A DNA stretch of 39,477 bases, from positions 1 through 39,477 of the forward strand of contig JAFZNL010000293.1 of the NCBI GenBank assembly GCA_017550925.1, written 5' to 3'. Each line of letters opens with the position of its first letter. The first letter of the stretch is position 1. The position numbers and the translations under genes were made by a program. Positions 8,245 through 28,243 of this stretch are shown here, one piece after another. This stretch comes from Lachnospiraceae bacterium. GTDB lineage: Bacteria > Bacillota > Clostridia > Lachnospirales > Lachnospiraceae. Under the pieces are notes generated by a model. That model was not told the origin of the DNA and did not search any database. It saw nothing but the letters and a program-made list of their open reading frames with translations.

Positions 8245-11200
8245 TTAGTTCAGTCTCAACAGACTTGTCTTGGTAACTCTCAGCTTCTCAACACCATAGT
8301 TCTGAGGATCGGTATCAGAAGGATTCGTTACAATGGTCTTACCTGTCATAGCGGATACACTGTAGAAGATCGAGTGTACTTTCGCATAGATCGTGAAGTC
8401 CGCATTCGTATTCAGATAATTCATCGGCAGGTAGATTGCATAGGTCAGACCGCTATGGAGTTTATCAAACTTATTTGTGGTTGCATTCCTGCTAAGCTCA
8501 GTCGTCAGCGCACCATTCGTATCGGCCTCAAACAGTCTGATCTGATCTGTCACATCCACAACAAAGTCGGAATCCGTATTGCCGAAACCATCAGCGTACT
8601 GCAGCCATTCGGTTGTTCTGTTACCTGCATTCGTTGTCACAGATGCAACTGTGGTATCATTCCGCATAGAACTTGTCTGCAGGAAGAACTTCAGATCCAG
8701 TTCCTTAGAACCTCTGACGAAGTTATTATCTTCCAGTCGCAGGTAAACGATGGTACCATTTGCTTCCTGTCCTGCCGTTGTATTCGGATCAACGAACTTG
8801 TACTTATAATTTCCGTCCGCATCCTTCACTACGGAAGAGTTCACTGTTTCATCCTGTGTTACATTACCATCATACGGAACAGCAATATTGGTAATCTCCG
8901 GTGCATCTAATGTATGGTTTTCATAGAATCCAACCCTCGGCCGGATGAATTTGCTCTTGTATGCGGCAAACAGCGTATTTACAAAGAGCTGTGCTTCATA
9001 CTCGGAACCTGCCGTTACGGATGAATGGCCGGCACCTGTGTAGGTAACATTACCTTTGTTATAGATGTAATATGCATCTGCAGGTCTGACGCCGCCGGAG
9101 TTCACTCCGAACGGATCTGATCCTGATGTATTCGTTCCAAGGGTATACCATACAACGCAGTCAGACTCACCGTCATTATCATCATCTGCATCCATATCCA
9201 GTTCGAAATACTGGTTATGTGTTGTTGCAACCTTGAAACTTGCCGGGATCGCATACGGGAAGGATGTCAGCTGACCTTCATTCAATTTATCTACCGTATA
9301 AGTACCTGCATTCAGGTTTCCGCTGCCCCATTTAAATCTGTTATTATACTTCACAAAGGTCTGTGCTCCGCTGTCATTATACATATAACGGTTCATAGAC
9401 AGAACCGAATCTCCTGCCTTATATGCCGACAGCGTATTTCTCAGTGAACCGGGTTCATAAGCCGGCGTCTTTCCTGTATTCTCAACTGCTTCAAATACGC
9501 CGCCGTCAGCCGCTCTCGTATAATTTACATTCGTGAATAAGCTGTTCATCGCATTCGCCGGTGCAGTTTTGACTCTGTTCAGAAGCGAATATGATCCGTC
9601 ATTCTCCGGAATAATGTAATCCGTAACGCCATACTTATCCATTCCTACAAGGTCACGCAAAGCATAGAAATGTCTGGAATCCGGCATCACCGTATTGAAC
9701 ATGATGAAGTCATGGGTCAGCAGAACCGGATTACCGTTCTCGATATAAGCCTGCAAACCATCCGTTGCAGTCTGCGTACCAAACGGTGCGTAGTTATCAC
9801 CGAAACCGAGAACGATCATGCTGGCACCGACAATATTATCTGCTGCATCGATCACGTATTCGTCAAAATACTGCTGACCAAATTCAGCTGCCGTCAAAGA
9901 AGGATCCGCATTATGCGCTGCCGTATATTTATTATTGAAATCCGTCTGGAAGGTATTGGTATCGATCGTATCGATATATACCTTATACCCCGGCATCTTA
10001 TTCAGATATTTACCAAAACGGCTTCCGTTATTTCTGGTATGGTTTGTTTCACTGGTGTACAGCTGTGTCTCCAGGTTCAGTGTACTCGAAGTATGGTTGA
10101 TCTGAAGGATCTTAATAACCTCATCACCATCCATGGGCTTGGCCACCGTGTTGCCCTGAACAGAAGCATGGGCTGCACTGACTGTCTTATGATCCACCGC
10201 AAACTTCCACGCCAGATAACCGGAATAATCATCATCAACTGCTCGCTTTAGTTCATATTCCACATCCTTCTTCAGTGCATAATACTCTGAATCATCCGGA
10301 TCTCTGTCCGCTTCTGCTCCGCTCGATTTCACGCGGATCGTCACGTCGGTAATATCCTCTGTTTCCTTTGAGTACTTACCGTCATTATTGATATCCAGAT
10401 ACAGATGCGGCCTGAACGTTGAATCTGCGGACATACCGGAGATCTCGGAATTGATCACAAAACCGAAAGTCAGGTATCTGTGGCCATTGGAATCTGCAGT
10501 CAGATATTTTACAGTCGTCGGATCGATAACCAGCGATCCGGGGCTCAGCTCATAATCATAAGCCTGCGGAACCTGTGTCATGGTCAGGCTCACCCTCTGT
10601 TTCAGGATATATTTCTCAAGTGTTTCCTGTGCAACGATTCCTCTCTTAACATCTTCGCAGCTGATCAGGTTCTGGCAGGGCTCAAAGAACGTAGTACCAT
10701 CATAGCTGTTTACATATTCGCCGTTTTGTCCGTATTTATACTGGTAGCGATAACCCAGTGCGTACTCGAACAGCTCATACATATAAGAGGAGTTATCCAT
10801 TCTGCCCTTATCAGTTTTGCTGTTATCATTCGGTTTCTTGACAGCAGTCGGATTTACTTCCCTTTCCTGCGCACCTGCTGTATCAGTTGTTGTCATCAGC
10901 TCCTTATCACAAAGGATCAGGTTGCCGTTATCCAGGAAAGCTTCCAGTTTCGACAGCTTATCTTTCGTGATATCTCTGGAGCCATATCTGTGCCACTTTG
11001 TATCCGGTGTCATAAAGTGATCCATACGCGCTTCATTCACTCTGGTCATACTACCCTGCGAATAATATACATTTCCATACATGGCAGTATTCTGCGTATT
11101 TGTAGATGCGCCGGTGGTAATTCTGAACTGCGGCAGGGATTTCTTTACTTTTGCGGTCACTGACATTCCTTCATACGCCGCCGTGCTGGTTGCCGCATCT

Positions 11201-13293
11201 AATTCTTTCCTGGTATCTATCTGTTCTTCATAATAGAGATCGCCTCTTTGTACTCCGATATAGATGATATCGTAGGTCTCGATCAGGTCTTCATTATGAC
11301 CGTTAAACTCATCCACGTTCATGGATGTGAACCGGATATCATCGATCTTTTTCTGATAATACTCACTCAGATAGTTCGCTGCAAATTCATCACGATTCTT
11401 CTTATATGTATCTGCCAGATATCCATACTCCTCAGATTTCGAATCGACCGGATTATACAGGAAGGAATTCACAGGCTCAATCTCAAGAATATGCAGTGTC
11501 TCCTTCAAAAGGGTCAGCGGATTGCCATCGCTGCAGAGGATATACTGAATCGCCACGGCCGGTGATACGTAAGTTGGCATCTGTCCGTCTGTAGAGTTCT
11601 TATTCGTTGTCGATATATATTCCAGCACAGCTGCAAAACCATTTGCTGCTACTTCCGACGTATATGCATTACTGAAATCACCGGTACAGAACAGATCTCC
11701 TGCATCCGTTTTCGATCTTGAAGCCGCATAGTCAGCAACATGATGATCATATACATATACGTTTCCGTTTACAAAGTTATGGGACGGAACATCGATCATG
11801 TTATCCTTTAAGTATTTCAGGAATTCGTCTGACAGATTGTTCGGATCTGCCAGCGTGATCTTTGTTTTTCCGGTGGTCGAATCCGTGGATTCTACCAGAT
11901 CACTGCCATACAGCGCATAGGCACTGCTGATGGAATCATTCAGCCATAACAGGCGGCACAGCTTATCCACGTTTAATTCTTTTCCGCCGGAATATGCCTT
12001 ATAGTCCATCATAACGGCTTTATGATCGTTTACTTCCTGATCAAAGATCGCCGCCATGACCGCCGGCTTTAAGTCTTTTGTTTCTGAGAATACTACCCCG
12101 GCATCTTTATTTGAACTCGAGGAAATATAGATCAGGTTTGCATTGTCAATATCATCCGTATTGACTTCATTCGCCGGTTTTACATTATATTCAATCTTTG
12201 AATTTGCGTATTCAATCCTACTTCCGAGCACAAATTCACGGAATGCGTCATTAGAAAAGAATCTGTAATTCTGGTCATTTGACATATAAATCGGATCATC
12301 CGTGCTGTAACCGAGATAATAATGTCTTGCCGGATCCGGCACTTCATCAATTCTGATCGCCGTAAAATTCAGATTACCCGTGTTTGTATCATTTCTCGTA
12401 ATATACGGCACGCCAGTCGACGAAGTCGGAAGTTCCTGGCCCGCCCTGATATCCGTGACAAGGGTCTTGACGGTGATTACAAAATTTCCATCTGCATCCT
12501 CTGTGTATCCTTTCTCAACTGCATTTTCACTGACAGTTTTGACTCCATCCGCATCAGCTGCCCAGGTATCTACCGTATTACCACTAACGGTTTCCTGCGT
12601 AACCTGATAAATACCGCCATCATCACCCATAGTATAACCATCGGCAATGTTATAAGCGCCATGATATGCATTATCATCACCGAGCTCAGCCAATGAATAG
12701 GTACCTGATACAAGGATGAAAGTATCCGGAAGCAGATATGGCGTTGTATTCTTATAGGTATCGCTGAAAACCTGCGCGGATTGCGTACCGCCATAATATG
12801 CAAAGATCGGATATTCTTCCACGCCGCTAGCACCTAAACGGTCATCCTTGATCAAACCATATTCCCAATAATTATGGATCGTATCGAGATCAGGATTATC
12901 ATTCAGCGCATTAAATGTCCTTTCCGTCAATGCCATGCCATAGGTAGCGGAAGTCGGCGACTGAATTGCGATATCTACATACCCTGATGGGGTTGCTTTC
13001 GGCGACCTGGGGCCGCGCAGAAAATAACCCATTTCGGAATACTTGTTAAAGTTCTTCGCGGTCTCATACTGGAATGTATTGCTCATTACCTCACTCGACG
13101 GCGTGATCTCGAGAATCTTCAGAACCGTATTACCGTCGCTTACAGGGAATTTCTGCGTAATGCCATCAAATACCTTGACCGCCTGTGCCTCCTGCACGCC
13201 GCTCAAAGTACCTGTCAGGAACATGACCGCAGCCATGGTAATCCCGGCAAATCCCATCCCTATTCTTTTGAGTGCTGTGTTCTTTTTCATCAT
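8245..13293 (-). CDS. 1682-aa secreted protein, last gene of the T4P operon (candidate pilus-associated adhesin, unknown family)
   Basis: It has a Sec-type signal peptide MMKKNTALKRIGMGFAGITMAAVMFLTGTLSGVQEAQA|VK, not a prepilin leader. There is no LPXTG motif and no C-terminal TM. A module signature recurs three times (see findings), and there is an acidic DxDxDG-like motif at 9160-9198. Function is inferred from position only. Confidence 0.85.
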   Translation of the reverse strand: MMKKNTALKRIGMGFAGITMAAVMFLTGTLSGVQEAQAVKVFDGITQKFPVSDGNTVLKILEITPSSEVMSNTFQYETAKNFNKYSEMGYFLRGPRSPKATPSGYVDIAIQSPTSATYGMALTERTFNALNDNPDLDTIHNYWEYGLIKDDRLGASGVEEYPIFAYYGGTQSAQVFSDTYKNTTPYLLPDTFILVSGTYSLAELGDDNAYHGAYNIADGYTMGDDGGIYQVTQETVSGNTVDTWAADADGVKTVSENAVEKGYTEDADGNFVITVKTLVTDIRAGQELPTSSTGVPYITRNDTNTGNLNFTAIRIDEVPDPARHYYLGYSTDDPIYMSNDQNYRFFSNDAFREFVLGSRIEYANSKIEYNVKPANEVNTDDIDNANLIYISSSSNKDAGVVFSETKDLKPAVMAAIFDQEVNDHKAVMMDYKAYSGGKELNVDKLCRLLWLNDSISSAYALYGSDLVESTDSTTGKTKITLADPNNLSDEFLKYLKDNMIDVPSHNFVNGNVYVYDHHVADYAASRSKTDAGDLFCTGDFSNAYTSEVAANGFAAVLEYISTTNKNSTDGQMPTYVSPAVAIQYILCSDGNPLTLLKETLHILEIEPVNSFLYNPVDSKSEEYGYLADTYKKNRDEFAANYLSEYYQKKIDDIRFTSMNVDEFNGHNEDLIETYDIIYIGVQRGDLYYEEQIDTRKELDAATSTAAYEGMSVTAKVKKSLPQFRITTGASTNTQNTAMYGNVYYSQGSMTRVNEARMDHFMTPDTKWHRYGSRDITKDKLSKLEAFLDNGNLILCDKELMTTTDTAGAQEREVNPTAVKKPNDNSKTDKGRMDNSSYMYELFEYALGYRYQYKYGQNGEYVNSYDGTTFFEPCQNLISCEDVKRGIVAQETLEKYILKQRVSLTMTQVPQAYDYELSPGSLVIDPTTVKYLTADSNGHRYLTFGFVINSEISGMSADSTFRPHLYLDINNDGKYSKETEDITDVTIRVKSSGAEADRDPDDSEYYALKKDVEYELKRAVDDDYSGYLAWKFAVDHKTVSAAHASVQGNTVAKPMDGDEVIKILQINHTSSTLNLETQLYTSETNHTRNNGSRFGKYLNKMPGYKVYIDTIDTNTFQTDFNNKYTAAHNADPSLTAAEFGQQYFDEYVIDAADNIVGASMIVLGFGDNYAPFGTQTATDGLQAYIENGNPVLLTHDFIMFNTVMPDSRHFYALRDLVGMDKYGVTDYIIPENDGSYSLLNRVKTAPANAMNSLFTNVNYTRAADGGVFEAVENTGKTPAYEPGSLRNTLSAYKAGDSVLSMNRYMYNDSGAQTFVKYNNRFKWGSGNLNAGTYTVDKLNEGQLTSFPYAIPASFKVATTHNQYFELDMDADDDNDGESDCVVWYTLGTNTSGSDPFGVNSGGVRPADAYYIYNKGNVTYTGAGHSSVTAGSEYEAQLFVNTLFAAYKSKFIRPRVGFYENHTLDAPEITNIAVPYDGNVTQDETVNSSVVKDADGNYKYKFVDPNTTAGQEANGTIVYLRLEDNNFVRGSKELDLKFFLQTSSMRNDTTVASVTTNAGNRTTEWLQYADGFGNTDSDFVVDVTDQIRLFEADTNGALTTELSRNATTNKFDKLHSGLTYAIYLPMNYLNTNADFTIYAKVHSIFYSVSAMTGKTIVTNPSDTDPQNYGVEKLRVTKTSLLRLN

Positions 13294-13361
13294 AACTCTC
13301 TCCCGTCCTGCCTACTGCAGTCTGTCACGCCAATTCCGTGCTTGATCAGTGTTGTTTCTCA

Positions 13362-15920
13362 TTAGGTCGTCGGTACCCAAGATTTACTTGTCGGACTGTA
13401 TTTATACTTCTTGCTTCCATAGTTCAGATACAGATAACTGCCCTGTGAATAAATGCCGGCCGTGATCGTATTTCCGTTCGCATCCAGTCCCGTAATGGTG
13501 GACGGTCCGTTCGGCTGATTACTGATGGTCGTCGGGAATTTCAGTCCCGTTTCCGTGGACGTACTGTCTTTTGTCGGGAAGTATACATCTGCTCCTTCCA
13601 CATTTACGGTGATCACCTTGTAATCCGTATAGGAAGCCGCATACTGGCCGATTTTGATCCTGTAATAATCATCCGCGGTCAGGCGCAGGGTGATCGGATC
13701 CGTCATATATTTCCCACCCGCTTTGGCGCTCAGGGTCACTGTTCCTTCATCCACAAAGGTATCCGCATTACCATAACCGGTCATCATGCTGATGGTAAAG
13801 TCTTTATTCACACCACCCTGGCCTTCTTTCAGCAGGTTGTTTGCCATATCGCCGGCAGTATCCGTATTCTTGCCAAGGTATGCACCAAAATAATACATAC
13901 CGCTCTTCGGCTCCATCAGGTTATAGTACTTTGTTGTAACCGAAATGTTTTTACTCTTACCTTTTGCCAATACGATGATATCGGATGTCGGAGAAACTTT
14001 ACTGGTCACTACCGGTTTCGGCGAATAGGTACAATCCTTCTGAAGTTCTGTCAGCTGGCTGACTGAACATCCAAGTGCGGCAGCTGCTTGCGCCTTATAT
14101 TCGCTAAGCCCCTGTCCGATGATGCAATAAGGCTTCGTTGCATCATTGGTCGTATAACCCATTACGTAATGGATCAGTACATTGCCATCGTAGAAGTTCT
14201 TCTTCTGGTCTCCGGAATAGGAGAATGCATTATAGTCCAGATACAGTCTGATCTCCCCGTTCGAATCCGTTGAAATCTTCACCTTGCTGGCACCGTGGTC
14301 TGCTTCTGAAGAGTTGCCGACACCATCCACCATTGTCACTGCAAAGAACTTCACTTCATTGACAGTCGGCACATCATCCTGAGGGTAAGGTTTCTCACCA
14401 TAATACAGGCTGCTGATATTGGTACGGTATCCACGGCTGTATGCACCGTCAGCATTACTTGTCCTGGTGCTCGGCAGGATACCGAAGATCTTCTCTCCGT
14501 ATACCGTATCATCATACTCGGAATAAGCCGTTACCTTAAATGCGAAATCATTGGTTGCGCCCTTACCAAGCTGTACAACATTCGTTGTCAGATTAGTGCC
14601 CGGATTTACAAGCCTTGCAATATTTGCGTCATTGACTACAGCCCAGTCACTGTCGCTTCCGTCATATCTTCTCGATTCCAGTTTCCAGGTCACGCCCGTC
14701 AGATCCAATACATTGACAAGTTCCGGCTTCGCCCTGAAGGAGATACTCTGACCTCCACCGTATGTAACATAGAAATCTGCCTCATTTGCTTCATGGCCGT
14801 TATAAGGATTCTCTTCATAGATCTCATCCCAGTCCTTGATATTCGGAGAAGGGTTAGGGTTTACAGACACGCTGCGGCACATACGCAGATTAACGGTTCC
14901 GTTCGCGGTTACAGCAGGTGTTGTCTTATTCTCGCCATTCTTTGTATAAGCACCGACTGCACTGACTCTCACATTATAGGAAGTCATTGCTTTCGAAAAG
15001 TCTACATTGGTAACATTCAAAAGCGCAGTATCCTCCGTGCCGGCGATGGACGCCCATCCGTCAGAACCTGAATCAACTGACCAGGTATAAGAGATCTTAT
15101 CACGGCTGATGGTACCGGTCGGGAATGCCCTGTATCCAACCTGCGGTGAAGTGGCATCAAATGTCAGATAGGAGTCCGCTGAGCTTGTGGGATTTGACTT
15201 ATAATATCTGCCGAAAAGCCTGTTGTTCTTGATATCAATATAGATTCTGGGCGGCTCCATTGTCAGTCTGTTCAGCGTCGGATCAGCATCCGGATCTTCC
15301 ACAGTCGCCGTTGCGGGAAGTTCCTGATTTCTGACATAAACCTGATAATCACCGTGATATGTCTGGCCTCTCTTCTCAATCAGCATATCGTAGCTGACAA
15401 TACTCTCATTTCCGTAGCGGCTCAGATCCACATCAAAAGAGCTCACATATTCACCAAGCAGCGACGTTGTAGTTGTTGTGCCGCCGCCACCATCCGGCTC
15501 TTCCGTAACAAGATAAACTTCTTTTCGGGTATTATCATATACTACCCTGTACGTAGTCATACTTCCGTCAGCATTGATCGTCTGTACGATCAGGAACTTA
15601 TTCGGATCCGCATCAGGCGTGATCGTGATATTGTTCCCGTATGCATCCACGCGGTTATATGTTGCTGCGAGCATTCCGACCGCTGTCGTGGGATCATCAA
15701 TAATATTCTTTGAATCGATCAATATATCGGAAATGGAATTCGCCACCAGCTGGGATTCCGATTGCAGCTGCGATTCCGCACTGGTTCTTGAATACATGCC
15801 TGAGGACGAATTCATCATTGTAAAGATCATCACTCCCAAAGAGCCAAGAACTGCTATTGCAATAATCAGCTCCAAAAGTGAAAAACCCTTCTGCTTCTTA
15901 CTCATTCTCATTTTTTTCAT
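13362..15920 (-). CDS. giant pilin-like protein (~852 aa) with a prepilin-type N-terminal cleavage/methylation motif
   Basis: MKKMRMSKKQKG|FSLLELIIAIAVLGSLGVMIF is a class III signal (G-1, F+1, E+5, hydrophobic helix). ATG 15920 with AAAGGAG 8 nt upstream is preferred over the track GTG at 15929. The remainder is Ser/Thr/Asn-rich and beta-rich with Ig-like segments. Confidence 0.85.
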   Translation of the reverse strand: MKKMRMSKKQKGFSLLELIIAIAVLGSLGVMIFTMMNSSSGMYSRTSAESQLQSESQLVANSISDILIDSKNIIDDPTTAVGMLAATYNRVDAYGNNITITPDADPNKFLIVQTINADGSMTTYRVVYDNTRKEVYLVTEEPDGGGGTTTTTSLLGEYVSSFDVDLSRYGNESIVSYDMLIEKRGQTYHGDYQVYVRNQELPATATVEDPDADPTLNRLTMEPPRIYIDIKNNRLFGRYYKSNPTSSADSYLTFDATSPQVGYRAFPTGTISRDKISYTWSVDSGSDGWASIAGTEDTALLNVTNVDFSKAMTSYNVRVSAVGAYTKNGENKTTPAVTANGTVNLRMCRSVSVNPNPSPNIKDWDEIYEENPYNGHEANEADFYVTYGGGQSISFRAKPELVNVLDLTGVTWKLESRRYDGSDSDWAVVNDANIARLVNPGTNLTTNVVQLGKGATNDFAFKVTAYSEYDDTVYGEKIFGILPSTRTSNADGAYSRGYRTNISSLYYGEKPYPQDDVPTVNEVKFFAVTMVDGVGNSSEADHGASKVKISTDSNGEIRLYLDYNAFSYSGDQKKNFYDGNVLIHYVMGYTTNDATKPYCIIGQGLSEYKAQAAAALGCSVSQLTELQKDCTYSPKPVVTSKVSPTSDIIVLAKGKSKNISVTTKYYNLMEPKSGMYYFGAYLGKNTDTAGDMANNLLKEGQGGVNKDFTISMMTGYGNADTFVDEGTVTLSAKAGGKYMTDPITLRLTADDYYRIKIGQYAASYTDYKVITVNVEGADVYFPTKDSTSTETGLKFPTTISNQPNGPSTITGLDANGNTITAGIYSQGSYLYLNYGSKKYKYSPTSKSWVPTT

Positions 15921-15995
15921 TCCGGACACTCCTTTAATCCCGCTTTGTGGCCTTGTGCACCAACTCTTTTGCTCAATTTGATTATTGCCTGCTTA

Positions 15996-16541
15996 TTATC
16001 TTGTTCTGTTGATCACCTTGCCGGTGGCCGGGATCAACTGTATCTGATATACCTTATTTGCTGAGGAGTAACACTCTATATATTCCACCTGTGATAGCCC
16101 CGCAGTCGGAGACGGAGATGACAACATCGCTCCGGTAGATCTGTTAAAGCAAATCGTCAATGCTCCGGTAGCCTCATCACCAATTTCCGTTGTCGTAATA
16201 CTGTTTCCGCCATACCTGATACCGATCCTTGCACCGATCTCCACTGCATCTTCCGGTGTTCCGTTCACATAGGTCTTCCGATAGATCTTCTTTCCGTCCT
16301 TATAGACAACCATATAAATATCGCCATTGTTTACCGCTTTCGAAAGTGTTTTTACTTTCAATTCAGAGATGGAATTTGCAAGCAGATTCTTGCATTTTCT
16401 GGCCCTGTAGCCGTTCAATGCATCAATATTATTGGCCATCAATCCCAGAAGAACGCTCAGTATCGCGACAGCTACTATCAGCTCCACCAAACTGAAACCC
16501 TTCTGTACACTTCTTTTATCGGAACGATTTGCGTCTGCCAT
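15996..16541 (-). CDS. minor pilin (prepilin-type N-terminal motif)
   Basis: MADANRSDKRSVQKG|FSLVELIVAVAILSVLLGL. ATG 16541 with GGAGG 8 nt upstream is preferred over TTG 16556. The ATG overlaps the upstream stop as TAATG, which suggests translational coupling. Confidence 0.85.
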   Translation of the reverse strand: MADANRSDKRSVQKGFSLVELIVAVAILSVLLGLMANNIDALNGYRARKCKNLLANSISELKVKTLSKAVNNGDIYMVVYKDGKKIYRKTYVNGTPEDAVEIGARIGIRYGGNSITTTEIGDEATGALTICFNRSTGAMLSSPSPTAGLSQVEYIECYSSANKVYQIQLIPATGKVINRTR

Positions 16542-19057: not shown

Positions 19058-19113
19058 GGCCATCTCTCCCTTTCTTACAAATAACAGACGCTGCAACGAA
19101 ACAAAATCAACTC

Positions 19114-20604
19114 TTAAACTCTTCCTCCGGACAATGCACCCTTATAGGTTACTTCTGTTCCGGTCTTTCTGTCTTTTACGATAATTTCAACATTATAAAT
19201 GGTAGGTGTTGTTGAATCCATCAATCCGTCATCGATCAATCTCTCATAATCATCCGACAAAATTTTATTTACCGTAGTATTGTAATAGATATCGCAACGG
19301 TTCTTGTCATAATGGGTGGAAATCGAGGTAATATCAGGATCTGTATCCGAAATGCCTTTTTTCCTGTTCAGACGCTTAGTATTCTCTTCCGATATCTCAT
19401 GTCCGCCTTCGTCATAATATCTGAGGTTGTCCAAAGAACCCAGATTCAGGTCATAACGAAGATTCTGCACTACCTTTGTCAAGTCATTCAAATTACCGGC
19501 CCCGTCATCCGATGTGATATGTAATTCACACTTATAACTGGAATTAATGGCATCCGAGGAGTTTCTCTTCTGACGGAATACAAAGAAGTTGATCTCCTCT
19601 CCGGTATGATTGACAAGCTCGATCGTATCCAACGATGACGCCAGACTGCTTCCGGGCGTACCGCAGTATGTTAGATAAATATTTCTCGGTTTTTCCGAAT
19701 TATTGTCATAGATCGGCGAAAGGTTAACGGGAAGATAAACGCTGTCCACCGGGTTAAGATTCCAGCTGGTCACGTAAGTGTCCTTGATCTTATATTTCTC
19801 GGTTACAAGCACCTGATAATCGGGATGATCCGCATCCGGACCGTCATTTGTCACTTCACAGCGAAGTACATGCTCGATCTTCCCGTTTAGCATGCTCTGG
19901 TTGATCACCGTTACCGGGCTGGTAAGTGTGGCAAAGGTGCTCATGGCATCTGAATAGTAGGATCCGCCGCCTGCTCTTTCCACATTGGCAAAACTGCAGT
20001 CGATGGAGTCATTTACTTCATACATACGATTCAGTTCGTCATCGATCTTGCCCTGATATCCTGCGTAAGACATTTTGATGGAAACATCGTAGGTGTTCTT
20101 CTGCTGTTTCAGTCCGTTGATATAGAAGTAGTAGTCCGGCTCAGCCTTATTCATCTTGGGTATAACCTTGGATCCCACAAGATCTGCATACTGCATGCCG
20201 AGACTTGCTGTCGCATCCTCCGCAGCCGTATTGTCGTCAGTATTGACATCTACCTTATATCCGTCTGTCAGAGTGCCGCCGGACATGACCCTGTCACCAT
20301 GGGAAGAATATTTAAGTCGTGCTGGAAGCAATGTGCCGTTGAGAGATTCAGCACTTTCGAATTTCGCAATTACTTCTTCGCCTTTATAAGCACTCAGACC
20401 TTCCATGATGTCCTGCGCCAGATTCATTTCATTCAGCTGTCTTCTGGCCTTCATGTTGACGGTACCGGATTTTACGAAATTAGAGATCATAGGCGCAGCC
20501 GCGACAGCCAGAATTGCTACCGCAATGATCACCTCGACCAGTGTAAAACCACTATTTTTTTTCATTTGATCGTTTCTTCGTTTCATCATCCATCCGCCCT
20601 TCAT
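19114..20604 (-). CDS. minor pilin (496-aa ORF) with a prepilin-type N-terminal motif
   Basis: ...MKKNSG|FTLVEVIIAVAILAVAAAPMISNF. The start is uncertain: candidate ATGs are at 20604, 20589/20586 and 20565. Confidence 0.85.
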   Translation of the reverse strand: MKGGWMMKRRNDQMKKNSGFTLVEVIIAVAILAVAAAPMISNFVKSGTVNMKARRQLNEMNLAQDIMEGLSAYKGEEVIAKFESAESLNGTLLPARLKYSSHGDRVMSGGTLTDGYKVDVNTDDNTAAEDATASLGMQYADLVGSKVIPKMNKAEPDYYFYINGLKQQKNTYDVSIKMSYAGYQGKIDDELNRMYEVNDSIDCSFANVERAGGGSYYSDAMSTFATLTSPVTVINQSMLNGKIEHVLRCEVTNDGPDADHPDYQVLVTEKYKIKDTYVTSWNLNPVDSVYLPVNLSPIYDNNSEKPRNIYLTYCGTPGSSLASSLDTIELVNHTGEEINFFVFRQKRNSSDAINSSYKCELHITSDDGAGNLNDLTKVVQNLRYDLNLGSLDNLRYYDEGGHEISEENTKRLNRKKGISDTDPDITSISTHYDKNRCDIYYNTTVNKILSDDYERLIDDGLMDSTTPTIYNVEIIVKDRKTGTEVTYKGALSGGRV

Positions 20605-20643
20605 GTTAGAAGCAACTGTTTTTGTTACAGGATTTTGCCAAGA

Positions 20644-20678
20644 CAGGCAATAGGGAATTTTCCCTGCCCTATTGCCTG
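20644..20678 (-). other. perfect 12-bp intercistronic hairpin between pilO and the minor-pilin genes
   Basis: CAGGCAATAGGG (20644-20655) pairs with CCCTATTGCCTG (20667-20678) around an 11-nt loop. No U-run follows on the minus strand. Confidence 0.6.
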
Positions 20679-20700
20679 CATATTACAACTTTATTTCTAA

Positions 20701-21507
20701 TTACTGTGCTGCTGCAGCTGCAGATTTCGCTGCTGCTGCCGCCTGTCCTGCTGCCTTCTCTGCGAGGATCGCTGCAAGACGGGCCTGTGTATCAAACAGG
20801 TCATTTGTACCAACTGCAACACCAGGTGTCTTCGGTGATTCATAAGTCTTATCCGTACCTGTCAGTGAATACATGTTGTAGGTAACTGTTCCTTCCAGAT
20901 TACCGGTTTCTTCACTGAACGCCATGTTGACCATATCAACCGATTTCTTGTTAACGCCGTCTTTCGTAATTCTGGTGAGCACATCCTTAAGTGTACTGTA
21001 AGCTGTTCTGACAGTCACCGTTACCGGCGTCTGATACAGCATGTTCGAAGGTTTCGTAGGTTCTGACTCGGTCACGGTATTCTCAACGATCTCGCCGGTC
21101 TCTTCTCCGGTTGCTTCATCTGTTACAGCTTCTTCCGCTGCAGGTGCTGAAGGTGCAGCCACCTCGATCACGCTTGAACCCGGCATGGAAATTGCGGTAA
21201 TATCAAGCTGAAGGCTGTTTTTCTCTGTTTCATCCGCATATAAGATCTCATCTTCCGGTTTTACATCTGCCGGGAACTGCGCGATGATCTTCTCGTCTTC
21301 TTCCTTCATTGTCTTGGTATCATTGATATACTGTTCTTTGTGATCCGCAAGATCCTGGAGACGATCCACCTCAGCCTGAAGTGCGTCATTCTCCACCTTT
21401 ACCGCATCGGTCTTTTCGCCGAGGGAATTCCAAATCACGGTATAGGCTACGATAATACATACAATTCCGAGAAGTCCCAAAATGATTCCTACATAATTAT
21501 TCTTCAT
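20701..21507 (-). CDS. pilO: PilO-like pilus assembly protein
   Basis: 268 aa with an AGGAGGG RBS. It is a bitopic protein with an N-terminal TM (VGIILGLLGIVCIIVAYTVIW), a coiled coil (VENDALQAEVDRLQDLADHKEQY) and an extracytoplasmic domain. It sits directly after pilMN. The assignment rests on architecture and position, not on strong sequence recall. Confidence 0.6.
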   Translation of the reverse strand: MKNNYVGIILGLLGIVCIIVAYTVIWNSLGEKTDAVKVENDALQAEVDRLQDLADHKEQYINDTKTMKEEDEKIIAQFPADVKPEDEILYADETEKNSLQLDITAISMPGSSVIEVAAPSAPAAEEAVTDEATGEETGEIVENTVTESEPTKPSNMLYQTPVTVTVRTAYSTLKDVLTRITKDGVNKKSVDMVNMAFSEETGNLEGTVTYNMYSLTGTDKTYESPKTPGVAVGTNDLFDTQARLAAILAEKAAGQAAAAAKSAAAAAQ

Positions 21508-21524: not shown

Positions 21525-23357
21525 TTACTCAGCCGTATTCTCGGTCTGTTCCGCGGTCTGTTCCTCAACCAGAGCCGGATTCGTTCCATAAGTACATACA
21601 ACCTGTGTTTCAACTCTGGGCTCTGCCAATACTCTGCCCTGATCATCCAGTTCTTCTTCCACTTCATTCACCGCAGTGATCTGAACATCAGAGAAGTTAT
21701 CAAAGGTTCTCAGGCTCAGTACTGCTGCAGCAACTTCTTCCTTCGTTGCAACCGTAAAGGTCAGGATAAAGCTGTCTGTGGTTGCATTGATCGCGTTCAC
21801 CTGAATGCTGCTGGGCAGCTTTTTCTCCATCTCTTCAATGGTCTCGGTGATCTGCGTATTATAATTTTCCGTCATCGCATAAACCGCTGTCAGATACTCG
21901 TTATCTGTCTTGGTCTGCATATATTCATTATAAATCTCGAGAACCGGTTCAAGCTGTGCTTTCTTCTCTTTCAGATTTTCATTACGTACATTTTCATTCA
22001 CATAATTCGGAATGCGAAGCGCCGAAACAACAGCCAAAACAACAAGACCTATCAAAAAGACTGTCAATCCCAGCTTATCACCGGATACGCTGACCGATTT
22101 TGCCTTAGCGCCTTTTTCTTTTTTGCCGCCCTTGCCGACAACCGCGTCTACCGGCATGAAACCAACGGAGCCGAGTGCCGCACCGATAACGGTGATGTAA
22201 TCACCAAGGGATACATCGTGCAAATGGAGACCCTGTGAAATATCCGTTCCTGCAAGGTCTTTCAGCACTTCGACTTCACGACCGAGCTCTTCGGAAAGCA
22301 ATCCGGAGAATCCCCAGAAGTCGGCTGCTATACCGGTCAGGATGATGTTGTCAATGGCTGCATCGCGGTTTTTGCTGTTATAGTAGTCAATTACGCGGAC
22401 AATGGAACTGATCAGCTGCATGTAGGCGTAAGTAACATCTCTTCTCAGTCTGAGCATCTTCAGGTTTGCGCCTGCCTGCTTTGCTGCTACCGTTGCACCG
22501 GCAATACCGGAGGAGTCACCGGTTGCTGCCGCCTCAGCGATCGCTGCTTCACTCTTTCTTTCGAGTTCCGCAACTTCCGCTTCCTTATCTGCCAGCGTCG
22601 CTTCTTCTTCTTCCTTCATAACCAGATTGTTACGACGAAGGGTCTTCACTGCTGCTTCATAAGAGAGTGCATCGCCGTATACATCTGTTTCCATCATAAT
22701 ATCAACAACCTGATCCGCACCATAGATACCGGAACGCTGCATGGTAATGATACCGTTGTTGGTAACCGTGATCAGTGATGAACGTTCATCAATCTTTACT
22801 GTCAGGTTTACGCCCTGAGCAAATCTGGTACGCAGTGCCTGGAAGATACTGTTACCGGAGTAGTCAATGGATACGAGGTCAAGTCCAAGTTGTTTTGCCA
22901 GATATCCGTAACCATCCAGGATCTCACTGGGGCAGGCCATGATCATAACTCTGTACTGCTTGGAACCGGATTCATCCGTAATGGTATCCATGATATTATG
23001 TGCAAACTGATAAGCACTCGGATCTACCGGGAAGTAATCTGTAATGTTCGCCATCAGCAGATCGCGCACCTTGTTCTCTTTGACAGCCGGGATCGTTGCT
23101 TCCCTGTTGGCGATCTTCGTGGATGATACCGCGAAGATAACCTTTTTCGCCGTCAGGCCATTGGCAGCGATATAAGATTTCAAATCCTGTACAAATGTTT
23201 CCGTTGCCATGATCGCGCCGTCATTTAAGATGTTGTCCGGCGTCTTCATACTGAATACATTGTACACCTGCGGTTTCTTGGACTGGTAATCCATTTCGCA
23301 GACCTGCGTCAATGAATAGCCAATCTCAATACTGATAACTCTTTGCGATTTTGCCAT
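21525..23357 (-). CDS. pilM: PilM-PilN fusion protein (actin-like ATPase fold plus bitopic PilN-like C-terminal part)
   Basis: 610 aa with an AGGAGG RBS. The N-terminus RVISIEIGYSLTQVCEM... matches the PilM/FtsA-like phosphate-1 region. There is an internal TM (LGLTVFLIGLVVLAVVSALRI), then a coiled coil and a small alpha/beta domain as in PilN. PilMN fusions are known in clostridial T4P clusters. Confidence 0.8.
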   Translation of the reverse strand: MAKSQRVISIEIGYSLTQVCEMDYQSKKPQVYNVFSMKTPDNILNDGAIMATETFVQDLKSYIAANGLTAKKVIFAVSSTKIANREATIPAVKENKVRDLLMANITDYFPVDPSAYQFAHNIMDTITDESGSKQYRVMIMACPSEILDGYGYLAKQLGLDLVSIDYSGNSIFQALRTRFAQGVNLTVKIDERSSLITVTNNGIITMQRSGIYGADQVVDIMMETDVYGDALSYEAAVKTLRRNNLVMKEEEEATLADKEAEVAELERKSEAAIAEAAATGDSSGIAGATVAAKQAGANLKMLRLRRDVTYAYMQLISSIVRVIDYYNSKNRDAAIDNIILTGIAADFWGFSGLLSEELGREVEVLKDLAGTDISQGLHLHDVSLGDYITVIGAALGSVGFMPVDAVVGKGGKKEKGAKAKSVSVSGDKLGLTVFLIGLVVLAVVSALRIPNYVNENVRNENLKEKKAQLEPVLEIYNEYMQTKTDNEYLTAVYAMTENYNTQITETIEEMEKKLPSSIQVNAINATTDSFILTFTVATKEEVAAAVLSLRTFDNFSDVQITAVNEVEEELDDQGRVLAEPRVETQVVCTYGTNPALVEEQTAEQTENTAE

Positions 23358-23481: not shown

Positions 23482-24258
23482 TTATAGATGTAACAGACCG
23501 AAATACCAGTCAACGAAGCCCCTCCCGACGGTAATTGCGATCATAATGCCTAATGACAGGTATGGCCCCATGGCCAGTTTCCTGTCCGCTCCGAAAAACC
23601 TCATTCTGATAATATGTATCACTGAGCCGAGGACACAACCCGCGATCAGCGCAAACACAATCTGTTTCCAGCCGATCAGCAGCCCTGCGGCCCCCATCAA
23701 AAACACGTCTCCCCAGCCCATGGCTCCCTCATGTGTAATGATTACGATCAAAGCCAAGGGAATACTGACAGCAAAGAGGCCGATCACTAAGGTCACCCAA
23801 TCCCCTAAGTGAAATCCCAGGTGGATCAGCCCCAGTGCCAGTATAAATCCATTATTTGCAAGAAAAATCTCCTGCGTACGAAAGTCGATGACGCTCAGCA
23901 CGATCAGTGCAGAGGCCAATAAACAGTATATCGCTGAATCTATACTCCACCCGTAAAGATAGAACACAAGAACATATACCGCTCCGTTTAATGCTTCAAT
24001 AATTGGGTATTGAGCGGAAATATGCTCACCGCATTTTCGGCATCGACCACGAAGGAACAGGTAACTGAACAGCGGAATCAGATCATACCAGGCTAAGGTG
24101 TAGCCGCATTTCATGCAATGGCTGCGTTCTTTCGCCACGCTCTCCCCCGCCGGTAATCGCAGGATACAGACGTTCAAAAATGAACCGATCACGATACCAA
24201 AGAGAAATATCATAATTCCTAAGATCAAAATTGCCATGAGTTCCTCAGAAGCGATCAT
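23482..24258 (-). CDS. pilD: prepilin peptidase (A24 family, PilD)
   Basis: 258 aa and polytopic. It has the N-terminal motif GSFLNVCILRLPAGESVAKERSHCMKCGYTLAWYDLIPLFSYLFLRGRCRKCGEHISAQYPIIE (Cys4 region) and the second catalytic-Asp region GAMGWGDVFLMGAAG. Confidence 0.93.
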   Translation of the reverse strand: MIASEELMAILILGIMIFLFGIVIGSFLNVCILRLPAGESVAKERSHCMKCGYTLAWYDLIPLFSYLFLRGRCRKCGEHISAQYPIIEALNGAVYVLVFYLYGWSIDSAIYCLLASALIVLSVIDFRTQEIFLANNGFILALGLIHLGFHLGDWVTLVIGLFAVSIPLALIVIITHEGAMGWGDVFLMGAAGLLIGWKQIVFALIAGCVLGSVIHIIRMRFFGADRKLAMGPYLSLGIMIAITVGRGFVDWYFGLLHL

Positions 24259-24329: not shown

Positions 24330-24728
24330 TTACCAAGTACCTGTGCAGGAAAGAGATCCGTCACCGGTGGTATCTGTTACAGTAACAGTGTAGGTGCTGT
24401 TCTTGTAAGCTTTGGATTTAACCTTTACAGAACCCCAGGAAGCGAAGTACTCGTTCAGACCTGCGGTGATACCTGCGGAACCAGTATTAACGCCGCCTGA
24501 GCTGAAGGTAAGGGTATCGCCATCAGAGATGGAATCGATATAATCTTCATCTGTGCAGGATGTCATAACTGCGTTCTTCAGGTTATCAGCATTGTCCTCA
24601 TCCGCGGACTTACGGCTCTTCTCAACATACTTGATGTACTGAGGAGCAAGAACTCCGATCAGGATAGCCATAATAGCGATAACGATGATAAGCTCTACCA
24701 ACGAGAAACCTTTGTTTGTCTTTTTCAT
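24330..24728 (-). CDS. pilA: type IV pilin (132 aa), probable major pilin
   Basis: MKKTNKG|FSLVELIIVIAIMAILIGVLAPQYIKYVEKSRKSADEDN... ATG 24728 has AAGGAGAGG upstream, and the track start 24767 is probably too early. There are two Cys residues (TSCTDEDY and LSCTGTW). A strong hairpin follows. Confidence 0.9.
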   Translation of the reverse strand: MKKTNKGFSLVELIIVIAIMAILIGVLAPQYIKYVEKSRKSADEDNADNLKNAVMTSCTDEDYIDSISDGDTLTFSSGGVNTGSAGITAGLNEYFASWGSVKVKSKAYKNSTYTVTVTDTTGDGSLSCTGTW

Positions 24729-24807: not shown

Positions 24808-25209
24808 TTAACTCCAGTCACCGAAGATATCGAAATCTCCTTTTGCCGTCTTCGTAAAGCTGACTGTATAAGTCTGTGTCTTATACTTTTTGGATTTTGG
24901 CTTTTTTTGCGCCAGATTATCCGAATAGAATACGCCCAAAGCACTCATGATCGCCGCATTGCCGGAAGTGATGCCGCCGGAAGAAAACGTGATGGTGTCT
25001 CCGTCGTTGATGCTGTCGAAGTATTCTTCGTCCGAGATCATGACAAACGCCGATTCAAAAATCGATCCGGCTATATCCTCGTCAGCGGATATCCTCGATT
25101 TCTCCACATATTTGATGTACTGCGGTGCTAACACCCCGATCAGAATCGCGAGGATCGCAACCACAATGATCAGCTCCACCAGCGAAAAACCTTTGTTCGC
25201 GTGCTTCAT
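24808..25209 (-). CDS. pilA: type IV pilin paralogue (133 aa)
   Basis: MKHANKG|FSLVELIIVVAILAILIGVLAPQYIKYVEKSRISADEDI... with an AAAGGAGG RBS. It is homologous to the downstream pilin over its whole length and has no Cys. Confidence 0.9.
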   Translation of the reverse strand: MKHANKGFSLVELIIVVAILAILIGVLAPQYIKYVEKSRISADEDIAGSIFESAFVMISDEEYFDSINDGDTITFSSGGITSGNAAIMSALGVFYSDNLAQKKPKSKKYKTQTYTVSFTKTAKGDFDIFGDWS

Positions 25210-25221
25210 ACGCGCCTCCTT

Positions 25222-26445
25222 TTACAGGTTATCAAGACCTGTGTACATAGCGGCCATAGGAGCCATAACCGCACCGATGATAGTTCCGCAGATCGCAGCC
25301 AGGATAATGATCATCAAAGGCTCCAACGCTGCCATCAACGCTTCAGTTGCCGTTTCCACTTCTTCCTCATAATAATCAGCCAGTGTATCCAGCATGCTCT
25401 CGATATTACCGGTTTCCTCACCGATCCTTACCATATGATAAACCATCGGCGGGAACAGTCCGGATCTTTCGAGCGGCTGTGACAGGGGAACACCCTGCAT
25501 AACGTCTGTTCTTGCATCCCTCATGGATTCCTGATAAAACTTATTTCCCATTGTCTCGGCTACGATTTCCACTGCCTCCGGCATCGAGATGCCTGCTGCC
25601 AGCATGGTGGAAAGGTTCCTTGCAAATTTCGCAGAGTTCTGCTTGGTTGTCAGGTCTGCAAGAAGCGGGATCTTGATCGCTGCCCTCGCGATCAGTCTCT
25701 CACCTGTCGCCGTCTTGCTGAAATATCTGATACCGATCACCAATACGATCAGTACAGCAAGCAAGATATACCATCTTGACTTTACAAAGTTCGATGCCGC
25801 CACAACTGCCAGCGTGATCTTCGGCATGTCAATTTCCATATCCGCGAACATATCCATGAAAGTCGGCACGATGTAGGTCAGCATGACGATAACGACCACG
25901 ACTGCCACGATCATAACCATGATGGGATATACCATTGCTTTTTTGATCAATCCCTGGATCTTGGCGGATTTTTCAAACTGAACTGCCATACGCTCAAACG
26001 CGATATCCAATGAACCTGAAGCTTCACCTGCTTCTACCATGTGGATCAGCAGTTTCGGGAATACGTCCGGCCTCTGTGCCATGGAACCGGCAAGGGATTC
26101 ACCCTTCTGCACTCCGAGGTAGCAGTCTTCCAAACCGCTCTTCAGCGTCGGGTTTTCTGTCTGTTCTGTCAACATCCTCATGGATTCAAGGATTGTGACA
26201 CCGGCACGGTGCATACTTACGAACTGCCTGCAGAACAGGGACATGTCGCGCACGGGAACTTTCTTTTTAAAGAGGCTTCCCATATCCAGGTCTTTGTCCA
26301 GGATACCCGCTTCCCTTACTTCAGTCGGCGTCAACCCCTGGCGCTTGAGCGCGTCCGATGCCTTCTGCAGGGAATCGGCTTCAATGGTGCCGTTTGAACT
26401 CTTTCCCGTTTTCTGGTCTACCGCGGTATACTTAAATGTTGCCAA
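25222..26445 (-). CDS. pilC: type IV pilus platform protein PilC (GspF family)
   Basis: 407 aa with a TTG start and AGGAGGG 7 nt upstream. It shows the duplicated GspF-type organisation: MATFKYTAVDQKTGKSSNGTIEADS..., two cytoplasmic domains each followed by TM segments, and the typical C-terminus EPLMIIILAAICGTIIGAVMAPMAAMY. Confidence 0.92.
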   Translation of the reverse strand: MATFKYTAVDQKTGKSSNGTIEADSLQKASDALKRQGLTPTEVREAGILDKDLDMGSLFKKKVPVRDMSLFCRQFVSMHRAGVTILESMRMLTEQTENPTLKSGLEDCYLGVQKGESLAGSMAQRPDVFPKLLIHMVEAGEASGSLDIAFERMAVQFEKSAKIQGLIKKAMVYPIMVMIVAVVVVIVMLTYIVPTFMDMFADMEIDMPKITLAVVAASNFVKSRWYILLAVLIVLVIGIRYFSKTATGERLIARAAIKIPLLADLTTKQNSAKFARNLSTMLAAGISMPEAVEIVAETMGNKFYQESMRDARTDVMQGVPLSQPLERSGLFPPMVYHMVRIGEETGNIESMLDTLADYYEEEVETATEALMAALEPLMIIILAAICGTIIGAVMAPMAAMYTGLDNL

Positions 26446-26491: not shown

Positions 26492-28243
26492 TCAAGCTTC
26501 AAACGATACTTTAATCATCTCACTGACAGATGTGATTCCCTCCATGACATACCGGGTTGCGCTCATTCTCAAAGTGCTCATCCCCTGTGTCAAAGCCACA
26601 TCTTTGATTTGGTCCGCGTCGCCGCCCTTAGCGATGATCCTCTTTACCTCGTTGGACACTTCCATGATCTCGTATGTACCGATACGCCCTCTGTATCCGC
26701 TGTTATCACAGTTTGAACATCCAACCGGTTCGTAAATCTCCACTTCCTCGCCGGGCTGCTTGCCGAGAAGTTCGAGTTCATCCTCATCCGCCAGGCGTTT
26801 GCGCTTACATTTCGGGCAAAGCCTTCTGACAAGTCGCTGTGCGATGATACCCACAACGGAATCGGCAATCAGATAAGGTTCAATTCCCATATCTTCCAAA
26901 CGGGATACTGTACTTGCCGCCGAGTTAGTATGCAGGGTACTTACCACCAAGTGGCCCGTAATCGATGCCTGTACCGCAATGGATGCCGTTTCCGTATCAC
27001 GGATCTCACCGATCATGATAATGTCCGGGTCCTGACGGAGAATGGAACGGAGCGCCGACGCAAAGGTCAACCCCGCTTTTACGTTGGTTTGTACCTGATT
27101 GATACCAGCTACGTTAGCCTCGACAGGGTCTTCTACTGTGATGATATTGACATCTTCGGTATTCAACTCGGAAAGTGCCGTATATAGGGTTGTGGACTTT
27201 CCGGAACCGGTAGGCCCCGTAACCAGGATAATTCCGTGCGGGTTCTTTAATATATGGGTAAATACTTTACGTTCTTCATCATTAAATCCGAGTTCCGAAA
27301 TATCCCTGGTCAAGTTTCCTTTGTTCGTGATACGCATTACGGTCTTTTCACCGTATACGGTGGGAAGGATGGAAACACGGATATCATATTCTCTGTTATC
27401 TACGAAGGTTGTGATACGACCGTCCTGGGGTTTTCTCTTTTCGGAGATATCCATTCCGCCGACAACCTTCAGACGGGCTACGATAGCGGGAAGCAACTTA
27501 ATATTATAGGTAGCTCTTTCAAAGAGCGCCCCGTCGATCCTGTATCTGACGCGGACGGATTTCTCAAGCGCTTCAATATGGATATCGGAAGTTCTCTGGC
27601 GTACCGCCTGCTCCAACATGGAATTCACCAGCTGTACGATGGGGGAGTTGTTGACATCGTCGTTTACCATCTTGTCGATGTCTTCCTCTGCAAAGAGGTC
27701 TGCTCTCTCCGCCTCGTAATCCTTTGCTGCCTTGGAGGCTTCGGCGTTACCGTAATATTTGTCGATCGCCAGCATGATCTCGCTGGGCGTTGCGACCACC
27801 GGCTGGATCATACGGTTACATACCATCGAAAGGTCGTCTACCGCGAGCAGGTCCATGGGGTCCGCCATAGCCATCAGGATGATATTGATGTTTCTGTCGT
27901 CATAGGAATAAGGGATGGCGGTGTACTTTTTTAATATATCGATGTCGAACATCGCGATCAGGTCGCTCGGTATGCTCACATCTGACATATTTGCCCTGTC
28001 ATATCCCAGCTGGCGGCTCAGTGCGTTTGCCATTGCATCGTCGGTGATGAATCCATCCTCGATCAGCACCTCGCCAAGCCTCTTCTTTTTCTGCTGCTGG
28101 ATCGCTAAAGCTTCGTCTAACTTCTCCTGGGTGATGACGCCTTCATTTAAGAGCACATCACCGATCCTCAGTTTCCTTCTTCCGGCTAAACTCATCCGCT
28201 TTTCCCTGCCGTTTCCTTGCTTTTTTCCCGATTCTAAGCACAC
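26492..28243 (-). CDS. pilB: type IV pilus assembly ATPase PilB (GspE family) with an MshEN-type N-terminal domain
   Basis: Walker A GPTGSGKSTTLYTAL, Walker B DPDIIMIGEIRD, His box TGHLVVSTLHTN and tetra-Cys CPKCKRK...CSNCDNSGYRGR. The start is either GTG 28243 (AGGA 4 nt upstream) or ATG 28195 (MSLAGRRKL...). Confidence 0.95.
   Translation of the reverse strand: MCLESGKKQGNGREKRMSLAGRRKLRIGDVLLNEGVITQEKLDEALAIQQQKKKRLGEVLIEDGFITDDAMANALSRQLGYDRANMSDVSIPSDLIAMFDIDILKKYTAIPYSYDDRNINIILMAMADPMDLLAVDDLSMVCNRMIQPVVATPSEIMLAIDKYYGNAEASKAAKDYEAERADLFAEEDIDKMVNDDVNNSPIVQLVNSMLEQAVRQRTSDIHIEALEKSVRVRYRIDGALFERATYNIKLLPAIVARLKVVGGMDISEKRKPQDGRITTFVDNREYDIRVSILPTVYGEKTVMRITNKGNLTRDISELGFNDEERKVFTHILKNPHGIILVTGPTGSGKSTTLYTALSELNTEDVNIITVEDPVEANVAGINQVQTNVKAGLTFASALRSILRQDPDIIMIGEIRDTETASIAVQASITGHLVVSTLHTNSAASTVSRLEDMGIEPYLIADSVVGIIAQRLVRRLCPKCKRKRLADEDELELLGKQPGEEVEIYEPVGCSNCDNSGYRGRIGTYEIMEVSNEVKRIIAKGGDADQIKDVALTQGMSTLRMSATRYVMEGITSVSEMIKVSFEA

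Follow-up and report, generated by a model that had tools for sequence, protein, structure and literature searches.

A type IV pilus operon of Lachnospiraceae with large modular minor pilins and a terminal DUF5057 protein, a candidate tip adhesin

The type IV pilus (T4P) loci closest to the one described here are the Clostridioides difficile primary cluster (pilA1-pilB1-pilC1-pilMN-pilO-pilV-pilU-pilK) and the Clostridium perfringens main locus (ending cpe2280-cpe2277), which encode a core of PilB, PilC, PilD, a PilM-N fusion, PilO and small pilins, together with a downstream block of minor pilins proposed as a tip complex. In a review of monoderm pili, the late-stage components of diderms and those of the PilC/PilY1 type are listed as missing in monoderms (PMC6916266). 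The same core was found in a 39,477-nucleotide stretch, here designated the window, from a Lachnospiraceae bacterium (contig JAFZNL010000293.1, GenBank assembly accession number GCA_017550925.1), a 39.5-kb contig of a metagenome assembly (ENA ERZ27256909, k141_1925084). Judged by its genes, the locus is a chromosomal type IVa-like pilus operon of a gut-type Lachnospiraceae bacterium. The operon runs in the order pilB, pilC, two small pilin genes, pilD, pilMN, a gene for a PilO-like protein, mp496, K851, mp186, mp855 and a gene for a 1682-amino acid (aa) protein, here designated the giant. It differs from the C. difficile and C. perfringens loci in having four minor pilins, three of which are 491–852 aa long, a non-pilin protein of the DUF5057 family as its fixed last product, no pilT gene in or beside the locus, and a position next to the flagellar regulon. 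The reading favoured here, to which we would give about an even chance, is a T4P with a four-minor-pilin tip complex that carries the DUF5057 giant as tip adhesin, a functional analogue of PilY1/PilC.

Homologues of the giant, sharing 24–46% identity with it, were traced to their contigs, and 192 relatives were obtained by scanning one genome per species; 77 of their loci were fetched. All open reading frames (ORFs) within 10 kb on each side of the giant were searched with the proteins of the window. The related loci belong nearly all to Lachnospiraceae, from human, mouse, ruminant, rabbit and horse guts, and three carriers are cultured, Kineothrix alysoides, Kineothrix sp. MSJ-39 and Anaerocolumna jejuensis. 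The order pilMN, pilO, mp496, K851, mp186, usually mp855, and the giant was present in every locus with enough upstream DNA (about 80 loci), followed in most by topA, codY and flagellar genes. A first-pass annotation of this DNA, made by a model from the sequence alone, had called the heavy distal half unusual and had raised the question whether the five distal genes always travel together. They do so in the approximately 80 related loci, where the giant comes last after the same minor-pilin set; thus the distal module occurs well beyond this contig, and the heavy distal half is instead the rule in Lachnospiraceae. Since one gene order was found in every locus with enough flanking sequence, the distal module is regarded as a conserved lineage trait.

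The sizes of the distal proteins vary considerably across the loci, with 373–590 aa for mp496, 162–228 aa for mp186 and 174–891 aa for mp855 where it was detected, while K851 has a median of 814 aa and the giant a median of 1726 aa, reaching 2530 aa. The five distal genes are also less conserved than their neighbours. Their products are 28–49% identical to the orthologues, against 63–78% for TopA and CodY and 64–80% for PilMN in the same loci. Their rate of divergence is about double that of the neighbours, a pace to be expected of exposed proteins.

Among about 85 loci no DUF5057 giant was found outside a pilus locus, one of them (L084) being without readable upstream genes. The most distant case is a compost metagenome contig (L086, contig RCUO01000834.1 in GenBank assembly accession number GCA_003941945.1, 201–12434), which carries a differently organised pilus locus with PilC, PilT (353 aa, TIGR01420 1e-137) and PilB encoded on one strand, and with pilin genes beyond the gene for the DUF5057-type protein P0019 (1571 aa). 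In P0019 the DUF5057-type domain is N-terminal (aa 331–625, hhalign probability 99.8) and is followed by pAdhesive_15, PKD and Big_2 modules. Two further loci, L085 (2333–6318) and L084 (1–4965), have DUF5057 proteins called shorter, at 750 and 768 aa, respectively. In L085 an overlapping 578-aa ORF directly precedes the DUF5057 gene, and about 2.6 kb of uncalled DNA lies upstream in L084; these short products may be split or frameshifted giants.

The giant (positions 8245–13293, minus strand; 187 kDa) matches DUF5057 (PF16480) over aa 774–1195 with an E-value of 8.5e-67 and 226.6 bits against a gathering score of 27.9, and this was the only family detected. The same match was obtained for 18 of 18 diverse relatives. 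By inspection, the protein begins with a classical Sec (type I) signal peptide ending in AQA; beyond the signal peptide it has no transmembrane segment, LPXTG is absent, and Pfam detected neither a wall-binding domain (SLH, CW_binding, LysM, SH3) nor a peptidoglycan-hydrolase domain. Variation in length is mainly N-terminal, the N-terminal region measuring 485–1350 aa in the relatives, the core 694–1041 aa and the C-terminal tail 130–311 aa. With the conserved domain as query, 1148 clusters (50% identity) were found among 1.84 billion representatives, and in the best 150 of these 1148 clusters the proteins are nearly all 1200–2700 aa long with the domain at the same relative position; long-profile word-indexed homology searches added few new proteins. 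DUF5057 is mentioned in none of the papers searched, and no function is known for this family of about 1150 clusters at 50% identity; the reading favoured here would give it a concrete, testable role.

A structural model of residues 585–1682 was built with 15 homologues (predicted local distance difference test score, pLDDT, 72.7; predicted template-modelling score, pTM, 0.76). It displays an alpha/beta domain (~600–815), a beta-sandwich (~940–1057), a large alpha/beta domain (~1058–1454) and one or more C-terminal beta-sandwiches (~1469–1677), and the Pfam model for DUF5057 spans three of these units, namely the end of one alpha/beta domain, a beta-sandwich and the first half of the large alpha/beta domain. 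The latter is the most conserved part of the protein. The best Foldseek match of the model was the ThuA-like protein 4jqs (E 9.6e-5, probability 1.0, template-modelling score 0.60 on target), the other matches being generic Ig-like domains, so that in this one medium-confidence model the conserved domain looks like a ThuA-like, class-I glutamine-amidotransferase-type fold. Pfam gave no ThuA match in the giant, and neither the giant nor its conserved domain had a sequence relative in the PDB. For the N-terminal third the model was poor (pLDDT 61) with no significant fold match, and comparison of the giant with a viral structure library gave generic Ig-like matches only. The recurrence of KILEI.P at aa 60, 602 and 1062 had raised the idea of three homologous ThuA-like modules; self-BLAST found nothing and profile-profile probabilities were below 8%, and the idea was dropped except as a loose impression.

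The conserved motifs of the large alpha/beta domain are YDMLILGF, SGKSVLFxHDTT, GMDRYGV, NxGQITxYPY, THxQYYQLDLxxDxDxDG..VVWY, NNYYIYNKGNITYTGxGH and ExKLFINT. Within the core, H1359, Q1361, E1433 and D1219 are invariant polar residues and H1194/D1195 nearly so, and two conserved DxNxDG-type loops occur at 967 and 1370. The last 14 or so residues (window 8248–8290) conform to L-x-[VI]-x4-[LM]-[FL]-x-L-[DE]-COOH, with Leu at position -2 in all 75 of 75 non-redundant relatives despite overall identities of about 18–27%. This extreme C-terminal motif may be a docking or recognition element.

The giant gene is preceded by the genes for four prepilin-like proteins, all on the minus strand. The first, mp496 (19114–20589), encodes a modular minor pilin of about 491 aa with the processing motif SG|FTLVE (N_methyl 1.2e-8; weak PilV, GspI and GspJ matches at the N-terminus). 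It is followed by K851 (16541–19063), a GspK/PilX-type minor pilin of about 840 aa in which the corresponding sequence is KG|NALVM, with Gly(-1) and no Glu5, and by mp186 (15996–16541), whose start overlaps the K851 stop and which encodes a 181-aa minor pilin with KG|FSLVE (N_methyl 2.7e-8). The last, mp855 (13362–15920), encodes a modular minor pilin of 852 aa, the length also given by the public gene call, with KG|FSLLE (N_methyl 1.5e-6). The predicted precursor masses are 55, 92, 19.5 and 93 kDa for mp496, K851, mp186 and mp855, respectively. In the K851 orthologues of the sampled loci Gly(-1) is kept and position 5 is non-acidic and hydrophobic. Absence of Glu5 is a hallmark of GspK and PilX, which have been proposed as apex subunits (PMC7541494). 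No Pfam (E≤1) or NCBIfam (E≤0.1) family was found for K851, and the T2SSK/GspK domain was undetected.

The lengths of 491–852 aa in three of these proteins imply modules beyond the pilin fold, for which no defined domain was matched; the globular parts of K851, mp855 and mp496 gave no Pfam or NCBIfam family, and profile matches of the three proteins to the PDB were confined to the N-terminal helix (alpha1N), those of K851 being weak. Modular pilins (Raynaud et al. 2021) carry a bulky grafted module that is probably tolerated at the pilus tip alone (PMC8179133), a concept that mp496, mp855 and K851 appear to fit. The same bulky grafted-module design is seen in the modular pilins of Streptococcus sanguinis (PilB with a vWA module and PilC with a lectin module), whereas the modules grafted here match no Pfam, NCBIfam or PDB family; S. 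sanguinis also lacks a non-pilin partner of the DUF5057 type, and PilT is encoded in its locus. By their number and order, the four distal prepilin-like proteins would be the counterparts of the four-minor-pilin priming or tip set known as GspH-I-J-K and FimU-PilV-W-X. The two approximately 850-aa pilin-like proteins and the non-pilin giant, which the first-pass annotation had grouped in the distal 12 kb, thus belong to a minor-pilin/tip module that is coherent by synteny.

A parallel to this module is found in Gram-negative bacteria. In the fimU-pilV-pilW-pilX-pilY1 cluster and in Myxococcus clusters 1–3 there are likewise four minor pilins, one of them without Glu5, followed by a large Sec-exported non-pilin protein. 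The giant shares with PilY1 a type I signal peptide, the lack of an anchor, a gene directly after four minor pilins of which one is Glu5-less, a variable N-terminal region followed by a conserved C-terminal core, and two DxNxDG-type loops (for PilY1, see PMC7541494 and PMC8179133). The two differ in the conserved part, which in the giant consists of the putative ThuA-like alpha/beta domain and beta-sandwiches and not of a beta-propeller. Indeed, the PilY1/PilC beta-propeller (Neisseria_PilC, IPR008707) had no Pfam match in the giant at E≤1, and no PilY1 was among the 50 Foldseek matches listed. As the PilY1 domain is absent, the giant is filed as an analogue of PilY1 and not as a member of its family. 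In contrast to the Gram-negative type IVa systems, the host is monoderm and there is no secretin, and the minor pilins are several times larger.

By homology with characterised systems, PilB and PilC are the extension ATPase and the platform that together drive polymerisation, PilD processes the six prepilin-like proteins and the fibre is built of one or both of the 132- and 133-aa pilins, while PilM-N and the PilO-like protein would form the alignment complex. Under the favoured reading, the Glu5-less K851 would stand at the apex of the four-minor-pilin set. Exported by Sec, the giant would dock onto the minor-pilin complex at the membrane through its ThuA-like domain, beta-sandwich and C-terminal motif; the growing pilus would then push it through the wall, and its variable N-terminal part would be displayed at the tip as an adhesin. 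The reading draws on gene order, architecture and the analogy with PilY1, and is the best supported of those considered. It is favoured by the distant P0019, whose copy of the core domain is joined to pAdhesive_15, Big_2 and PKD modules, by the divergence of the five distal genes, which is that typical of exposed proteins, and by the tight gaps between the genes and the single strong terminator behind them. The very large tip adhesin assembly that the first-pass annotation had suggested thus keeps its footing as regards the coherence of the distal genes, and the adhesin role itself is put forward on the grounds just named.

Several points weigh against a tip adhesin. By Pfam the giant is without the PilY1 beta-propeller, and its conserved domain, which resembles an enzyme-type ThuA fold and holds invariant His, Asp, Glu and Gln, could have a catalytic function instead of a docking one. 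At about 450 kDa, the tip complex would have to pass a Gram-positive wall. The minor pilins are placed in the GspH/I/J/K classes by number, order and the lack of Glu5, not by domain homology, and the synteny was sampled from the giant outwards only.

A bolder form of the same idea, which is possible though somewhat doubtful, is that the DUF5057 giants fill in monoderms the place that PilY1/PilC holds elsewhere, as an unrelated carrier composed of a ThuA-like domain, a beta-sandwich and the conserved C-terminal motif. This carrier would sit on the Glu5-less apex pilin of a hypertrophied four-minor-pilin complex and present lineage-specific N-terminal effector modules at the tip. If so, glycans of the wall or the host might be the target of the conserved enzyme-like pocket while the giant passes the wall or attaches. 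Lachnospiraceae rank with the most abundant bacteria of the gut, and little is known about how they adhere to mucus, to fibre or to one another. The interest of the locus is that it supplies, for such bacteria, a candidate monoderm carrier of a tip adhesin that can be put to the test, and a system in which the priming of a very large tip complex and its passage across the Gram-positive wall can be studied.

The alternative that survives best, though we regard it as unlikely, is a piston resembling the type II secretion system (T2SS), in which a short pseudopilus pushes the folded 187-kDa giant through the peptidoglycan and releases it as cargo; it differs from a tip adhesin only in the giant being released rather than kept on the tip. 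The first-pass annotation had named a pseudopilus of this kind as the other possible function of the operon. The giant carries a Sec signal, lacks an anchor and far exceeds the sieving limit of about 25 kDa quoted for the wall, and machine and cargo would be co-encoded in every locus. In the T2SS pseudopilus tip, GspH-I-J-K, the Glu5-less apex subunit contacts the folded exported protein, and PilY1 has been called an analogue of T2SS substrates by Treuner-Lange et al. (PMC7541494). T4P genes of C. perfringens are reported to be needed for the secretion of BsaC, a T4P-dependent route for a large folded protein across the barrier, but the minor pilins cpe2279/2280 and cpe2277 are dispensable for it (PMC11580942). 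The present locus departs from these systems in that no T2SSK domain is detected in K851, that the gene for the putative cargo is part of the operon, and that a secretin is lacking; the operon proteins gave no Secretin, GspC or GspL match, and a GspM-like match, that of the PilO-like protein, was sub-threshold. Two small major-pilin-like genes together with a PilM-N-O set are typical of a true type IVa pilus (PMC6916266), the hypertrophied modular minor pilins are best explained by display, and the distant relative of the giant has adhesin repeats and a PilT in its locus, all of which speak against a piston.

The ThuA-like match with its invariant polar core residues, and the absence of any pilin-like element in the giant, would also suit a secreted enzyme or glycan-binding surface protein that is co-regulated with the pilus and does not bind it. 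We consider this quite improbable, because the giant holds a strict terminal position after the minor pilins down to 24% identity, the link is kept even in the differently organised compost locus, and no giant was seen away from a pilus locus in the survey given above, whereas a gene that shared no more than its regulation with the pilus should have been lost or relocated more often. Finally, a role of the giant in or at the wall, as a collar or local remodelling factor replacing the secretin-associated parts of diderms, would bear on the open question of how T4P cross a thick wall (PMC6916266) and would agree with a large multi-domain protein always encoded with the machine and having a conserved, enzyme-like core, but it is very doubtful given that no SLH, CW_binding, LysM, SH3 or peptidoglycan-hydrolase domain was found and that the fast-evolving, length-variable N-terminus suits an exposed ligand-binding part better than a structural collar.

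The core machinery assigned above to the favoured T4P with its tip adhesin was identified by profile searches, which confirmed PilB, PilC, PilD, PilM and pilins and with them the Gram-positive T4P operon of the first-pass annotation, here classed as type IVa-like. The extension ATPase gene pilB (26492–28195, minus strand, as are all genes of the operon) encodes 567 aa from the ATG at 28195 and matches T2SSE (2e-138) and MshEN (7.5e-16); against TIGR02538 the protein scored 1.2e-188 and 628 bits, slightly under the equivalog cut-off of 675. Its aa 10–62 (window 28030–28195) carry an MshE-type motif for binding cyclic di-GMP (c-di-GMP; NF053729, 68 bits against a cut-off of 38), and PilB is therefore probably c-di-GMP responsive. 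A PilB of this type in an operon adjoining the flagellar regulon suggests a switch from the motile to the attached state. No riboswitch, for c-di-GMP or otherwise, was found upstream of pilB (no Rfam match at E≤1). The platform protein PilC (25222–26445; 407 aa) has two T2SSF repeats (1.4e-63). The two small pilins, both with KG|FSLVE, are paralogues: pilin 1, the candidate major pilin (24808–25209; 133 aa; N_methyl 1.8e-8), and pilin 2 (24330–24728; 132 aa from the ATG at 24728, a start backed by a ribosome-binding site; N_methyl 1.9e-8).

The prepilin peptidase PilD (23482–24258; 258 aa) matches A24_N_bact (2.9e-35) and Peptidase_A24 (1.2e-13). The PilM-PilN fusion (21525–23357; 610 aa) comprises an actin-like PilM part (TIGR01175, 5.2e-25, under the subfamily cut-off), a single transmembrane segment at about aa 422–440 and an extracytoplasmic C-terminal part, which is a presumptive PilN by virtue of the transmembrane segment and a weak PilN Pfam match in one orthologue (L005). 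A bitopic 268-aa protein (20701–21507) with an N-terminal transmembrane segment comes next; it is called PilO-like mainly by its conserved position, as its GspM/T2SSM matches are weak and sub-cut-off. N_methyl or TIGR02532 matches above cut-off were obtained for five proteins, of 133, 145/132, 496/491, 186/181 and 855/852 aa (ORF/refined start). As had been described, five proteins bear the canonical prepilin motif G|F(S/T)L(V/L)E, the Glu5-less K851 being the sixth prepilin-like protein.

No PilT was found in the 39-kb window, where a six-frame search with a bona fide PilT matched PilB only, nor in loci L001–L083 over 10 kb on each side of the giant. The first-pass annotation was thus right that the window holds no second ATPase of the PilT/PilU type, but its description of the operon as lacking a retraction ATPase does not follow. 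The pilT gene of C. perfringens belongs to a pilT-ftsA-ftsZ operon of its own, remote from the pilus locus (PMC6958937), and many Gram-positive pil operons have no pilT (PMC3244431). Because pilT is unlinked in other clostridia and present in the distant DUF5057-linked locus L086, its local absence says nothing on retraction. In about 17 Blautia-like loci (L045, L048, L053, L055, L057, L060–L062, L065, L067–L074 and L078) a second ATPase of the T2SSE family seemed to lie beside the giant; its identification as PilT was rejected, as it is a full-length PilB orthologue (564 aa, E ~1e-244) located between the giant and topA, the start of the operon not being visible in these loci. The order with ATPase and platform first, as in the window, is accordingly one of at least two arrangements.

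All 12 co-oriented ORFs of the block lie on the minus strand from 28243 to 8245, with a refined gene span of 28195 to 8245 and spacers of -16 to 124 nucleotides. The starts were refined by ribosome-binding-site support to the ATGs at 28195 (pilB), 24728 (pilin 2), 20589 (mp496), 19063 (K851), 16541 (mp186) and 15920 (mp855). An AT-rich divergent intergenic region upstream of pilB (28196–28598) is presumed to contain the promoter. The operon ends at an intrinsic terminator (8195–8232, minus strand), a hairpin with a 17-bp stem and U-run (dG -25.8 kcal/mol, z -6.76) that is its sole strong terminator. The operon is bordered by topA, codY and flgB-flgC-fliE-fliF-fliG at one end and, at the other, by genes for two double-YfhO proteins in tandem. 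In these respects the earlier description held up well: the gene-by-gene layout, with families assigned by profile search, the strong terminator closing the block and both flanks were found as it had them, and its sizes of about 838, 181 and 852 aa were reproduced by the refined starts. The G+C content of the distal half of the operon (window 8000–21000) is 43–48%, against 50–52% in the topA/flagellar and YfhO flanks. Recent horizontal transfer of the distal half was considered and rejected: this content is slightly lower, but the chromosomal neighbourhood is kept across the family.

On the plus strand, divergent from pilB, positions 28599–33488 and 33593–38737 encode tandem giant membrane proteins of 1629 and 1714 aa, which match YfhO in three and four separate stretches, respectively, and each of which may be a doubled YfhO. 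Last, two copies of the Clostridiales-1 RNA motif (RF01699) were detected on the minus strand at window positions 3000–3178 (103.6 bits) and 3553–3728 (90.5 bits). The motif was seen in none of the five related loci that cover the same flagellar genes. In the window the copies occupy the fliE-fliF and flgC-fliE spacers of the flagellar operon, and they have a conserved core in common while their stem regions are unlike.

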